Of a stretch of 64,000 nt of DNA, positions 19,927 to 24,476 are shown one piece after another (the first letter of the stretch is position 1; the number at the start of each line of letters is the position of its first letter). A program made the translations under genes and the position numbers. The notes under the pieces are model-generated. The model was not told the DNA's origin, did no database searches, and worked only from the letters and a program-made list of their open reading frames with translations. This DNA is from Parcubacteria group bacterium Gr01-1014_13 (GTDB taxonomy: Bacteria; Patescibacteriota; Patescibacteriia; Magasanikbacterales; GWA2-37-8), in the NCBI GenBank assembly GCA_007376295.1, contig VMGB01000001.1, positions 182,643 through 246,642 on the forward strand, given 5' to 3'.

Positions 19927-19969
19927 AAACCCACCAAAGTCTGGTAGGCAAAGTAGGGAACATGGACTG

Positions 19970-20272
19970 TTAATTTGAGCTGTTTTCTGAGTATGAATCT
20001 TCGAGCCGAACTGCCTTTACGTGAATAGTATGGTACACAATCTTTCGAGGAAGTGAGGGCATAATTTTACGAATAATTTTATATGCATCCTTATCGATAA
20101 TCTTTGTTTCCATCACCGTACGAATTTTTGCCTGGTCTAATTGAGAAAGAGCTAAAATTTTCTCGTTTAAACCGTTGCCTTTAATAGTCGTTCTAAAATC
20201 AATACTTTCGATAAATCTACCCTTTTTATCAAATGTATCAACACCAACAAGCCATACCTTGACTTCGGACAT
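19970..20272 (-). CDS. Hypothetical 100-aa protein on the opposite strand, between atpD and atpC. Start MSEVKVW chosen because it has a strong SD (AAAGGAGATAAAATG).
   Basis: Open frame with an AAGGAG Shine-Dalgarno. No recognisable family. It occupies a 387-bp gap that is normally less than 30 bp in atp operons. Confidence 0.5.
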   Translation of the reverse strand: MSEVKVWLVGVDTFDKKGRFIESIDFRTTIKGNGLNEKILALSQLDQAKIRTVMETKIIDKDAYKIIRKIMPSLPRKIVYHTIHVKAVRLEDSYSENSSN

Positions 20273-20313
20273 TTTATCTCCTTTGGGTAAAAAATTAACA
20301 CAAATAAGCATAT

Positions 20314-20742
20314 ATGTCAACACTTAAATTTAAAATCGTAACACCGGAAAAAGTAATTTACGAAAACGAAATTCTTCAAGTTACCATTCCTACTATGAGC
20401 GGTGAAATTACGATTCTTCCCAATCATATTCCTTTGGTTTCAGTGTTAAAAGCGGGGGAGATGAGAATAAAAGATAAAGACGGTGAACAGAATCTGGCAG
20501 TTTCCGGAGGATTTTTGGAAATACGCGGCAACAACGAAATTGTAATTCTGGCTGATCATGCCGAAAGAGCAATAGATATCGACACTGCTAAGGCTGAAGA
20601 AGCCAAGCAGAGAGCCGAAGAACAAATGAAAAATCTTAAAAACGTTCAGGATGTTGATTATGCCAGACTTCAAGCTGTTATTGATAGGGAACTCAACAAA
20701 ATAAAAATTGCTCGAAAATATAAAAACTTACCAAATAAATAA
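20314..20742 (+). CDS. atpC: F0F1 ATP synthase subunit epsilon
   Basis: LKFKIVTPEKVIYENEILQVTIPTMSGEITILPNHIPLVSVLKAGEMRI, the epsilon beta-sandwich plus C-terminal helices. Confidence 0.85.
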   Translation: MSTLKFKIVTPEKVIYENEILQVTIPTMSGEITILPNHIPLVSVLKAGEMRIKDKDGEQNLAVSGGFLEIRGNNEIVILADHAERAIDIDTAKAEEAKQRAEEQMKNLKNVQDVDYARLQAVIDRELNKIKIARKYKNLPNK

Positions 20743-20747
20743 AAAAG

Positions 20748-20776
20748 ATGGAGACCGTTCAACGGTCTCCATTTAG
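20748..20776. terminator. Bidirectional terminator. Serves atpC on + with a weak T-run and the minus-strand small gene with a good T-run.
   Basis: 10-bp stem atggagaccg/cggtctccat with loop ttcaa. A-run upstream and T-rich sequence downstream. Confidence 0.55.
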
Positions 20777-20791
20777 TTAAAGAACAGAAAT

Positions 20792-21088
20792 TTATTCTGG
20801 TTTGCGCTTTGCTAGCTTAGCGGCTTTTTTCCAAACAGATTTTTTGGTACCGTGATCATTTTCAGCGTAATCACTAACATCGTTCTTAACCGGGAAAACA
20901 CCGGGCCTATAGAGAACCACAGTCCAATGCTTAGGTTTGTGTCCATACTCTTTACGCGGTTCAAACACGCGCACTGTTGATGGATGGCTTATAGAAAGCC
21001 AATGTTCGGGAAGTTTTGACCATCTATATTTTTGCACCCAGACGAAGTGGACACCGTCTACTACTTTGGGATTTCTTCTTGTGGCCAT
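20792..21088 (-). CDS. Small hypothetical protein, paralogue 1 (HWLSISHP...VRVFEP family, unassigned)
   Basis: Shares VHFVWV...HWLSISHP..VRVFEP...LY(K/R)PGVF with the adjacent gene. The track start is a TTG; internal ATG (MATRR) taken instead. Confidence 0.5.
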   Translation of the reverse strand: MATRRNPKVVDGVHFVWVQKYRWSKLPEHWLSISHPSTVRVFEPRKEYGHKPKHWTVVLYRPGVFPVKNDVSDYAENDHGTKKSVWKKAAKLAKRKPE

Positions 21089-21096
21089 AACACCGC

Positions 21097-21405
21097 TCAA
21101 CTCACCGGACGCTTTGCCCAGTTAACGGCCTCTCGCCAAGCAATTCTTTCAGTGCCTAGGTACATTTCCGCATCATACTTGTCGTCGCTGCTAGGCGGAA
21201 TGAATACCCCGGGTTTATAAAGGATCGTCATCCACTCACCATCTTCTTTCGTAAGCGGATGTGGTTCAAACACACGGACTACTTGCGGATGACTAATAGA
21301 AAGCCAGTGCCCCCGAAGATTTGATCCTTCATACTGATCCACCCATACAAAGTGCACATCCAAAACGATTTTGGGTTTTCTCTCGTTATCATTTTTGTTT
21401 TGCAT
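21097..21405 (-). CDS. Small hypothetical protein, paralogue 2
   Basis: About 45% identical over the core to paralogue 1. GGAGG Shine-Dalgarno 5 nt upstream of ATG (MQNKNDNE...). Confidence 0.5.
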   Translation of the reverse strand: MQNKNDNERKPKIVLDVHFVWVDQYEGSNLRGHWLSISHPQVVRVFEPHPLTKEDGEWMTILYKPGVFIPPSSDDKYDAEMYLGTERIAWREAVNWAKRPVS

Positions 21406-21554
21406 GATATCCTCCATTCCTCAAGGGAATTTGTTGAGCGTAGTTAATCACAAAACAACTATGTCAGTCAACTTGACATTTTAAAAAATATATATTGCCT
21501 TCAATTTTTGGTTTTGATATAATCTTTGTAGTATTTATCTTCTAACCTCTACGT

Positions 21555-21683
21555 ATGGAAAAATGCAATAAATGTAGTATACCTTTTGAAGACCAAGTTG
21601 ATTTTTGTTTATGTAACGAAAGCCTCTGCGCACCCTGTTGCGAGTGCGACGATACTTGCGGCTGTCAATGCGGTGAAAAATAG
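21555..21683 (+). CDS. Cysteine-rich 42-aa peptide (11 Cys), not in the ORF track: MEKCNKCSIPFEDQVDFCLCNESLCAPCCECDDTCGCQCGEK
   Basis: Intact ATG..TAG frame. Own promoter-like TTGCCT-N17-TATAAT (21495-21523) and own terminator (21716-21738). No obvious Shine-Dalgarno. Confidence 0.4.
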   Translation: MEKCNKCSIPFEDQVDFCLCNESLCAPCCECDDTCGCQCGEK

Positions 21684-21786: not shown

Positions 21787-22944
21787 ATGATTAAAAAAAT
21801 AAAAATTAAAAAATCACATAAAACTATTCAAAAAGATTTTGAATTAGATTTAGAAAAAACAACAGTTATTACTGGGAAAAATAACTCTGGGAAAACAAAC
21901 TTTATTCAAGCGGTAAATGCTAAAAAAGACGTGGAATTTACTAATGCAGAGTTCTTGGATGAAAAAGATAAATTAATAATTCCAATTACTATTTATATAG
22001 CTGCAGAAAATATAAACCCTTCTGATAATGAATCAAACTCTTCGGCTAAAAAAAGTAGTTTGATACAAAATTTAGCAGAATTATTTTCTAATTTAGGAAT
22101 TAAATTTATTCTTGAAGAACAACCTAAAATTATTCAGGAAATAAAAACTTTAATAGATAAGGCGGATGAAAATTTAAAGGAATTCAGCGGAAAAAATGAT
22201 CATGGTATTAAAATAAAATTTAATGAAGGAGAATTGGACCCCGCTACCATAGCACAAGCCTTAATTAAAAAAATTATTGGAGACGAAAACGGAGAGGAGG
22301 TAGATCTAGACGATTTAGGACAAGGCACTCAAAGAATAATTGTTGCTTCAATTTTGAAAGCGTATGTGGATATTTTGATCGAAAGAAACAAACATTCTCA
22401 AGAACCAATACTAATTCTTTTTGAAGAACCCGAAATTTATTTACACCCTGAATTGAAAAGGACTCTTAACATAACATTAAAAAAGATAGCTGAGCAAGAT
22501 AATCATCAGGTTATAATTACGACCCACGATCCATACTTTGCTTATACTAATTTAAATGGTGAAAATAGCGTTGTTTACTCTTTTTTAAAAACTGCAGAGT
22601 ACACAGAAAAAACAGAGCCAGGTATTATATTTGGAATTGAAGATGAATTACTTCATATTCATCTTTTTGAAAAAATGATACAAATATTAAAGAAAAGTGG
22701 GAAGGTTAAATCTTTTATATTAGACCCTGGTAAAGAATTAGACATCTATATAAAGGGTTATTGCGGAAAAGAATTAAGAGCAAATACATGGTATAAAGAA
22801 AAAAAAGGCATAGAAGATAAGCTTTCTCTACCTTTACATATCAGGCATTTAATCCACCATCCTGGAGGTAAAGATAAATTCACTGATATTGATTTAGAAA
22901 AATCAATAGAAATATTAAATTTAATTCTAAGCAAAGCATCTTAA
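21787..22944 (+). CDS. AAA/ABC-type ATPase of the OLD/AAA_15-AAA_21 family (385 aa)
   Basis: Walker A VITGKNNSGKTNFIQAV, ABC-like signature region DLGQGTQR, and Walker B/D-loop ILILFEEPEIYLHPELKRTL...VIITTHDP. The C-terminal 130 aa has no obvious match; it may be a degenerate Toprim-like region (GIEDE...LDPGKELD). Confidence 0.8.
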   Translation: MIKKIKIKKSHKTIQKDFELDLEKTTVITGKNNSGKTNFIQAVNAKKDVEFTNAEFLDEKDKLIIPITIYIAAENINPSDNESNSSAKKSSLIQNLAELFSNLGIKFILEEQPKIIQEIKTLIDKADENLKEFSGKNDHGIKIKFNEGELDPATIAQALIKKIIGDENGEEVDLDDLGQGTQRIIVASILKAYVDILIERNKHSQEPILILFEEPEIYLHPELKRTLNITLKKIAEQDNHQVIITTHDPYFAYTNLNGENSVVYSFLKTAEYTEKTEPGIIFGIEDELLHIHLFEKMIQILKKSGKVKSFILDPGKELDIYIKGYCGKELRANTWYKEKKGIEDKLSLPLHIRHLIHHPGGKDKFTDIDLEKSIEILNLILSKAS

Positions 22945-22970: not shown

Positions 22971-24476
22971 ATGGATTTTATTAGTAAAACAACTTATTTA
23001 GAGTATTTATCTTGCGGTAAAAATGCCTGGCTTAGATGTTATAAACCGGAATTAAAATCATTATTTAAATTATCTGATTTTGATAAAAGCCTAGTAGATA
23101 AAGGAAACTTAGTGGAAGATTGGGCGCGCAAACTTTTTCCAGACGGCGTTTTAATTACCGAATCAGACGAAGAAGCTTTACGAATTACCAAACAGCATAT
23201 CGCAGATAAAACACACGTTATTTTTCAATCAAAATTCATTCATGACAAATTTTTGGCAAAAAACGACGTGCTTGAGTATGATAAATTTAATGATTGTTGG
23301 AATTTATACGAAATTAAAGGCACTAATACTTTAGACGAAAATGTAAAAGAAATAGATCATATAGAAGATGCCACTTTTCAAACTATTATTCTAAAAGCCG
23401 TAGGAATTAAAGTTGGTAAAGTATTCATTATCCACCTAAACAAAGAATACGTCAGAGAAGAAGAAATAAACGTGGAGGAGCTTTTTATTAAGGATGACAT
23501 AACTGAGGAAGTTAAAAATAGGGAAGAAAATACAAAAGAAAAAATGCAAAAAGCAGCCGAATGTTTATTTCAACAAAATGAACAAGCTTTGGTCTGTCAA
23601 TGTGTCTATTCAGGCCGAAGCGCGCACTGTGCAACATTTAATTACTCCTATCCCAACATTCCAGAATACTCGGTTCATGATTTATCTAGAATAGGGAATA
23701 GTAAAAAAAAGTTAGAATCTTTGGTTGATTCACAAATTTTTGATATAAATGAAATTCCTGAAGATTTTGAATTAACACCCAATCAGCAAAATCAAGTTTA
23801 TGTACACAAAACTCAAAAACCAATAGTAGATTTAGTGGCTATAAAAAAAGAGCTTAAATCGCTTGCATATCCTCTGTATTTTTTGGATTATGAAACATAC
23901 CCGCCGGCCATACCTTTGTTTAAGGGTTTTAAGCCATACCAACAAATACCATTTCAATTTTCTTTACATATAATAGATGATGAAGATAGCGAACCGATCC
24001 ACTTGGAATATTTGCACGAAAATGCTACGGATCCATCTTTGTCTATTATACTCAAATTAAAAGAAATGATTGGTCCAAATGGCAATATAATTACCTGGAA
24101 TAAAAGATTTGAAAAAGGAATAAATACACAATTAGCTGAAAGAAACCCGGAATATGCAGATTTTATTGAAGATATAAATAGTAGAATTTATGATTTAATG
24201 GAAATATTCCAAAAACAATTTTATGTTCATCCTGGTTTTAAAGGAAAAGTTTCCATAAAAAAAGTTTTACCTATTTTAGTTCCTAAATTAAGCTATAAAG
24301 AACTAGAAATAAAAGAGGGCGGATCTGCTATGGAAGCATGGTACGAGATGGTATTTGGATCTGGCTCACAAGCAGATAAAAATAAAATAGCTGACGACCT
24401 GCGAAAATATTGCGGTTTAGATACTTATGCAATGTATGCAATTTGGAAAGAATTAATGAAAATTGTATGGCAATGA
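22971..24476 (+). CDS. Cas4/RecB-like PD-(D/E)xK Fe-S nuclease N-domain fused to a DUF2779 domain (predicted RNaseH-like exonuclease)
   Basis: N-terminal Cys-containing region (LSCGKNAWLRCY), D...EIK motif (NDVLEYD...YEIKG), Cys cluster CQCVYSGRSAHC, and DUF2779 core YFLDYETYPPAIPLFKGFKPYQQIPFQFSLH. Confidence 0.65.
   Translation: MDFISKTTYLEYLSCGKNAWLRCYKPELKSLFKLSDFDKSLVDKGNLVEDWARKLFPDGVLITESDEEALRITKQHIADKTHVIFQSKFIHDKFLAKNDVLEYDKFNDCWNLYEIKGTNTLDENVKEIDHIEDATFQTIILKAVGIKVGKVFIIHLNKEYVREEEINVEELFIKDDITEEVKNREENTKEKMQKAAECLFQQNEQALVCQCVYSGRSAHCATFNYSYPNIPEYSVHDLSRIGNSKKKLESLVDSQIFDINEIPEDFELTPNQQNQVYVHKTQKPIVDLVAIKKELKSLAYPLYFLDYETYPPAIPLFKGFKPYQQIPFQFSLHIIDDEDSEPIHLEYLHENATDPSLSIILKLKEMIGPNGNIITWNKRFEKGINTQLAERNPEYADFIEDINSRIYDLMEIFQKQFYVHPGFKGKVSIKKVLPILVPKLSYKELEIKEGGSAMEAWYEMVFGSGSQADKNKIADDLRKYCGLDTYAMYAIWKELMKIVWQ

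Follow-up and report, generated by a model that had tools for sequence, protein, structure and literature searches.

Beside the atp operon, on the minus strand, lie two adjacent small genes, here called A (upstream) and B (downstream). Sequence and conservation show both to be genuine protein-coding genes under selection, transcribed together as a unit of two. Their family is very rare, is seen in Patescibacteria/CPR-type contigs only, and has its placeable members in Magasanikbacteria and Uhrbacteria. None of the libraries tested can classify this family, which is new in that sense only. Sequence comparison firmly supports the view that A and B are old paralogues held in very different evolutionary regimes, with B conserved and polycationic. 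Coordinates refer to the window, the whole stretch of 64,000 nucleotides of Parcubacteria group bacterium Gr01-1014_13 that was analysed.

The initial annotation had proposed a pair of small genes at 20792-21417 on the minus strand, and the region does hold two intact, co-oriented paralogous genes. Mechanical calling of open reading frames gives 106 aa for 21097-21417 (-) and 102 aa, from a TTG start, for 20792-21100 (-). Gene A (21097-21417, -) is the promoter-proximal paralogue, an intact ORF that keeps all the family core residues and ends in TGA at 21097-21099; its true start is likely the ATG at 21405 (MQNKND..., 102 aa), where the database copy P0001 also starts and whose position is homologous in all relatives. 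Gene B (20792-21088, -; TAA stop at 20792-20794) most likely starts at the ATG at 21088 (MATRRNPK..., 98 aa), an N-terminus common to all orthologues. Aligned over 89 residues, the two proteins share 51% identity (E 2e-23), and the core motif quoted earlier (VHFVWV, HWLSISHP, VRVFEP, W, LY(K/R)PGVF) was read correctly. At the DNA level the conserved core of both genes is a direct repeat, D1, of 119 nt with 71% identity and a spacing of 305, whose arms lie at 20958-21076 in B and 21263-21381 in A. The spacer between the genes (21089-21096, -) measures 8 nt from the TGA of A to the ATG of B, not the 9 nt first given, and has no separate promoter, which points to co-transcription and probably to translational coupling of A and B. 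The same 8-nt spacing recurs in the second tandem lineage (L039/L042-L046).

Transcription of the pair would begin at a sigma-70-like promoter (21442-21471, -) that is conserved in register in the window and seven other related loci. It consists of a -35 element TTGACT (21466-21471), an 18-nt spacer ending in TG and a -10-like TTAACT (21442-21447); across related loci the spacer is 17-18 nt and again ends in TG. Downstream of it follow a conserved leader and a GGAGG (21411-21415) placed 5 nt upstream of the ATG at 21405. A generic promoter scan did not flag this promoter because its -10 is weak, and the assignment is an inference from conservation. The -35 element abuts a plus-strand TTGACA to form the palindrome GTCAAnTTGAC (21466-21478); that TTGACA is also present in two loci that lack the family (L011, L012), in which a terminator hairpin separates it from the -10 of the neighbouring Cys-rich gene. 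A conserved upstream operator palindrome was considered and rejected, as the promoter elements alone are conserved there. Repeat I6, by which 14 nt of the leader are complementary to the A-B junction, was likewise dismissed, being not conserved in L039, and Rfam returned only a sub-threshold chance match for the region.

The unit ends at a terminator hairpin (20748-20772; 12-bp arms, repeat I4) located between the stop of B and the stop of atpC. Its folding energy is -21.8 kcal/mol on the minus strand and -23.7 kcal/mol on the plus strand, with z about -6 to -7. On the small-gene side CUUUUUUAUU comes directly after the hairpin. On the atpC side the hairpin is 6 nt from the atpC stop and the U-run is weak. 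Equivalent hairpins are present in related loci. The proposal of a bidirectional terminator shared with atpC therefore holds structurally, with the qualification that the hairpin is asymmetric, as a good U-run is found in the small-gene direction only.

The suggestion that the ORFs are spurious, or that one copy is a decaying pseudogene, is hardly tenable. A has no database orthologue other than the identical fragment P0001, and the protein in the A slot (the upstream position) of the second tandem lineage, P0015, no longer has two of the near-invariant residues (G replaces W, and FES replaces FEP), both of which might be taken as signs of decay. Against this, both ORFs in the window are full-length with all core residues, A has a conserved promoter and Shine-Dalgarno sequence, and A-slot genes are intact in two lineages and five independent contigs despite a dN of 0.43. 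B is under strong purifying selection. Neither copy is thus decaying; clear decay of one copy is what the initial annotation had named in advance as counting against it.

The duplication is not recent. Within the window A and B differ with pN 0.37 and pS 0.69, so synonymous sites are close to saturation and the formal ratio of 0.27, although the proposed dN/dS comparison between the paralogues could be computed, is unreliable. Neighbour joining recovers the B clade at 98% bootstrap and leaves A outside it with no supported partner, which places the A/B split before the radiation of B. Against its orthologues B shows dN/dS of 0.06-0.2, and the B genes of the window and of L039 (94% identical) have dN 0.038, dS 0.66 and a ratio of 0.058. 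The A-slot genes of the window and the second tandem lineage are 49% identical with dN 0.43 and a saturated pS of 0.77. In a sliding comparison of these two lineages nucleotide identity is 80-90% in the promoter, the Cys-rich gene and B, and drops to 37-68% in a valley that coincides exactly with the A slot. From these sequences the slot appears to hold anciently diverged alleles or replaced cassettes, both occupants being intact, and the divergence could reflect allele replacement rather than functional partnership. An earlier description of a fast-evolving accessory family is consequently half right: the locus is accessory, but only the upstream slot is fast and B is under strong purifying selection.

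Family members are scarce. With A as query, a collection of 5.8 billion clusters yielded A itself (the identical fragment P0001) and two B-type proteins only; with B as query it yielded ten orthologous clusters, 63-95% identical. A profile search of 1.84e9 50%-representatives gave 22 matches at E<=1e-3, about 20 of them real (86-202 aa); the remaining two are repeat proteins and were set aside as not family. Searches of the 5.8e9 collection gave 10-16 clusters, the profile search having contributed one further cluster (P0033) and the sole source name within the family, that of a Candidatus Uhrbacteria MAG in which the protein is listed as hypothetical. Ten clusters that were looked up hold one or two sequences each. 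The closest relatives of the neighbouring atpC protein (64-84% identity, plus two at about 40%) come from MAGs titled Patescibacteria, Candidatus Magasanikbacteria or Magasanikiibacteriota, and a few of those MAGs bear other, obviously automatic labels.

The family had been called unrecognised, and no library changes this. Neither A nor B matches any Pfam-A, PHROGs, NCBIfam or PADLOC profile at E<=1, and a sequence profile search of the PDB returned nothing; in particular, no profile in the libraries tested places the two proteins in a housekeeping family, which would have overturned that description. Scanning 26 members singly at E<=10 gave scattered single matches, the best being DUF3876 in two of the 26 (E 0.044). 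Pattern scans found no family match in GTDB species representatives or in IMG/VR viral contigs, and tblastn found none in INPHARED phages (with B) or PLSDB plasmids (with A), so the family gives no sign of being phage- or plasmid-borne in these collections. Two published accounts describe CPR/Patescibacteria genomes as small, with a large share of genes unassigned (PMC6744442, PMC8672522), and orphan families as common in CPR genomes (PMC6744442).

Variation in copy number across relatives had been put forward as a check, and it is extensive. Among genomes whose atpC is 75-88% identical to that of the window, the site is found in four states: (i) empty (L010-L013); (ii) B only (L001-L008, L040, L041); (iii) an A-like gene only (P0013 in L022-L024 and L038; P0016 in L025); (iv) a tandem of A-slot gene and B (the window; L039/L042-L046). 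A fifth, fused two-domain state (P0012) stands apart from this comparison, on a contig of 959 bp (L009) whose flanks are not placeable. Genomes in different states are intermixed along the scale of atpC similarity, implying that the genes were gained and lost repeatedly. In an atpC-anchored scan of GTDB, 12 species-representative genomes with a related atpC had no family member within 6 kb. Directly 3' of atpC, the empty sites carry the Cys-rich gene (L011-L013) or DUF2779 (L010).

In all Magasanikbacteria-type loci that reach atpC the family gene is convergent with atpC and monocistronic, or forms a two-gene unit if tandem, and such loci have their own conserved promoter, leader, GGAGG and terminator. 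The other flank is a conserved gene for a 42-aa protein with ten cysteines on the atpC strand; beyond it the content varies between DUF2779, an ABC transporter and a UvrD/PD-(D/E)XK helicase, with an AAA_15 ATPase in the window only. Distant members are flipped and monocistronic and adjoin FtsEX and tRNA genes with a SurA-like gene, NifU/IscS, or PRC/YidC/NusA. The family is a self-contained accessory cassette in opposite orientation at the 3' end of housekeeping operons. No conserved partner gene was found across the loci, and no terminal inverted or direct repeats flank the genes to mark a mobile element. Gene GC (46% in A and 44% in B, against 38% for the window) is above that of the flanks in most loci, for example for the P0018 gene in L029 (59% against 41%), and below it in one.

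Constant adjacency to atpC across 75-88% atpC identity might indicate an accessory factor of the ATP synthase. The family distribution largely refutes this idea, which we regard as very improbable. The genes run on the opposite strand with their own promoter and terminator, rather than being co-directional, co-transcribed and co-inherited with the operon, and they are absent from the 12 related species-representative genomes, which have the same atp operon. The position of distant members beside unrelated operons indicates that adjacency to atpC is clade-level synteny with no functional link. Neither A nor B has a membrane segment or any similarity to AtpI or other atp proteins.

A neighbouring defence cassette had also been suggested. 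The ATPase concerned (21787-22944, +; 385 aa; GC 28% against 38% for the window) matches AriA, Old and GajA ATPase models and has no Toprim domain and no recognisable partner gene. It is missing from this site in every related locus, so it is not a conserved partner but a strain-specific insertion between the Cys-rich gene and DUF2779. The DUF2779 protein itself (22971-24476, +; 501 aa) belongs to the conserved backbone and not to a mobile defence cassette; in several relatives (L001, L002, L005, L006, L010) it is followed by DciA, a 130-aa protein, MreB and MreC.

Could the pair nonetheless be a conflict gene, an immunity or anti-phage factor or a phage-derived moron, whose A slot diversifies in an arms race? 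The sharp divergence valley between conserved flanks, repeated gain and loss at one site among relatives of similar atpC identity, gene GC that departs from the flanks in several loci, and the landing of a defence-type ATPase in the same variable region of this genome are all in keeping with such a gene. We consider it unlikely, as viral, phage and plasmid collections (IMG/VR, INPHARED, PLSDB) and the PHROGs and PADLOC profiles give no match, no toxin, integrase or phage gene is adjacent in any context examined, B evolves slowly, and the ATPase is absent from all other family-carrying loci.

Structure prediction describes the domain, about 90 residues long, as an antiparallel sheet of six strands with a single C-terminal helix behind it (AF2 model of B: pLDDT 89, pTM 0.81). 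No known fold was matched among solved structures despite the confident model, and the predicted fold is apparently new. Among the closest known systems are beta-sheet DNA-binding domains (the N-terminal domains of ASFV DNA ligase, 6imk, and of McrB, 3ssc, and AP2, 6sy0) and the coat proteins of leviviruses (ssRNA phages). PsiB, the RecA inhibitor of conjugative plasmids (3nct), gives a score against the family that is not significant and has no sequence similarity to it; PsiB is plasmid-borne and about 140 aa, whereas the small-gene family has no plasmid match. Every position invariant across the family holds a hydrophobic or aromatic residue (F, W, W, A, plus V, V, W). As the invariant columns are hydrophobic only, the domain is probably not an enzyme.

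The two paralogues differ in charge. A is mildly acidic (pI 5.5-6.0, net charge about -2) and B strongly basic (pI 10.2, net charge +12), as is every member of the B clade (pI 10-10.5, +12 to +15); P0015, in the A slot of the second tandem lineage, has a net charge of -3. According to the alignment and the AF2 model, the extra basic residues of B lie in the N-terminal RRNPK, in an HGHKPK loop specific to the clade and on the exposed face of the helix at the C-terminus, KKSVWKKAAKLAKRK. This polycationic surface, together with the weak fold resemblance to sheet-type DNA/RNA binders, suggests that B binds nucleic acid. Polyanion binding cannot be the function of the family as a whole, since its members are mostly neutral or acidic.

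Some members depart from the simple domain. P0012 (L009, 131-688) is a natural fusion of two family domains, 185 aa in all, with a linker of about 8 residues and a net charge of about -1 on each half. Its halves group away from the B clade (a weakly resolved placement), which suggests that doubling probably arose more than once. In P0018 (L029, 2458-3066) the N-terminal part contains two hydrophobic segments and the C-terminal tail is acidic. P0028 (L026, 6001-6573), whose gene lies just downstream of tRNA-Gly and tRNA-Thr, and P0032 share the feature of an unrelated N-terminal extension of about 100 aa; that this extension is a degenerate extra copy of the domain was rejected (hhalign probability 0.1% against the family).

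Taking these features together, we propose, tentatively and at somewhat less than an even chance, that the products of these genes are a dimeric, non-enzymatic binding module, B possibly binding nucleic acid. The domain would serve as a binding or scaffold module that works as a dimer, as the natural two-domain fusion suggests. In this genome A and B, made from one mRNA, would form an A-B heterodimer in which the basic surface of B contacts nucleic acid or another polyanion and A modulates or diversifies that activity. Such a heterodimer would not be obligatory, given that many genomes have B alone or an A-like gene alone. A more ambitious version, to which we give a low probability, is a structurally new, CPR-specific two-component module in which a conserved polycationic B is combined with an interchangeable, rapidly diversifying homologue in the A slot, acting in recognition or conflict, for instance in specificity towards phages or between host and symbiont. 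If true, it would account for the way in which a single genomic site has repeatedly seen gain, loss, duplication and fusion.

The arrangement of the pair resembles a type II toxin-antitoxin system, in which a harmful basic B would be neutralised by an acidic A, or some similar addiction pair. The two small genes are adjacent and co-transcribed, with an acidic upstream and a basic downstream product, an 8-nt spacer, one promoter and one terminator; the locus is accessory with presence/absence variation, and its GC exceeds that of the window. An addiction pair is improbable all the same. Co-occurrence is not obligate: B, which is usually the only copy, stands alone in about ten clusters or lineages, where it persists without A under strong purifying selection, and A-like genes are found alone too. 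The partners are also homologous to each other, in place of a toxin of known superfamily paired with a DNA-binding antitoxin, and neither of them matches a model of any toxin or antitoxin or any model in PADLOC. In the fused two-domain version both halves are acidic. The solitary occurrence of each partner and their homology weaken the comparison.

Tandem, diverged small paralogues with one hypervariable slot recall the orphan immunity arrays of polymorphic toxins. A and B differ from these in having no Imm/SUKH-type Pfam match and never more than two copies, and no locus has an adjacent toxin or secretion system; the neighbours seen are atpC, the 42-aa Cys-rich gene, the AAA_15 ATPase, DUF2779, the ABC transporter and the UvrD/PD-(D/E)XK helicase, with no toxin domain among them. 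Nor do the small genes appear to be part of a PARIS (AriA/AriB), Gabija or OLD-type system, as the ATPase is absent elsewhere and there is no Toprim or DUF4435 gene.

What sets the pair apart is the contrast between a conserved and a hypervariable paralogue in an apparently new predicted fold. Clean presence/absence states among close relatives, together with strong selection on one paralogue, are an unusual combination. Were the domain a true nucleic-acid-binding or recognition fold, it would define a new structural family, and the two genes, of about 100 residues each, would offer a tractable system for strain-level variation in episymbiotic bacteria. If the family is only another lineage-specific orphan, its value is limited to annotation.

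Two further small ORFs of the region deserve mention. The Cys-rich gene (21555-21683, +) encodes 42 aa with ten cysteines, MEKCNKCSIPFEDQVDFCLCNESLCAPCCECDDTCGCQCGEK, and is preceded by a TATAAT promoter with an extended TG. Copies are 60-93% identical at the amino acid level, and every Cys is invariant in all nine of the full-length copies translated. The ORF matches nothing in Pfam or NCBIfam; its conservation indicates that it is probably a real micro-protein. A link between this gene and the family was rejected, since it is also present in genomes that lack the family and is not found upstream of the distant members examined.

The second lies within the atp operon itself. The spacer between atpD and atpC (19927-20313) is 387 nt long and holds an antisense ORF (19970-20323, -) that encodes about 100 aa when read from the ATG at 20272. 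An antisense ORF also occupies this spacer in L008 and in L043; those two are homologous to each other (43% identity, E 2e-12), and the ORF of the window resembles them only marginally (E 0.05). Some other relatives have about 170 nt between atpD and atpC, or have the two genes side by side. On this comparison of sequences the atp operon encloses, in the spacer ORF, a second small gene that is variable and flipped.
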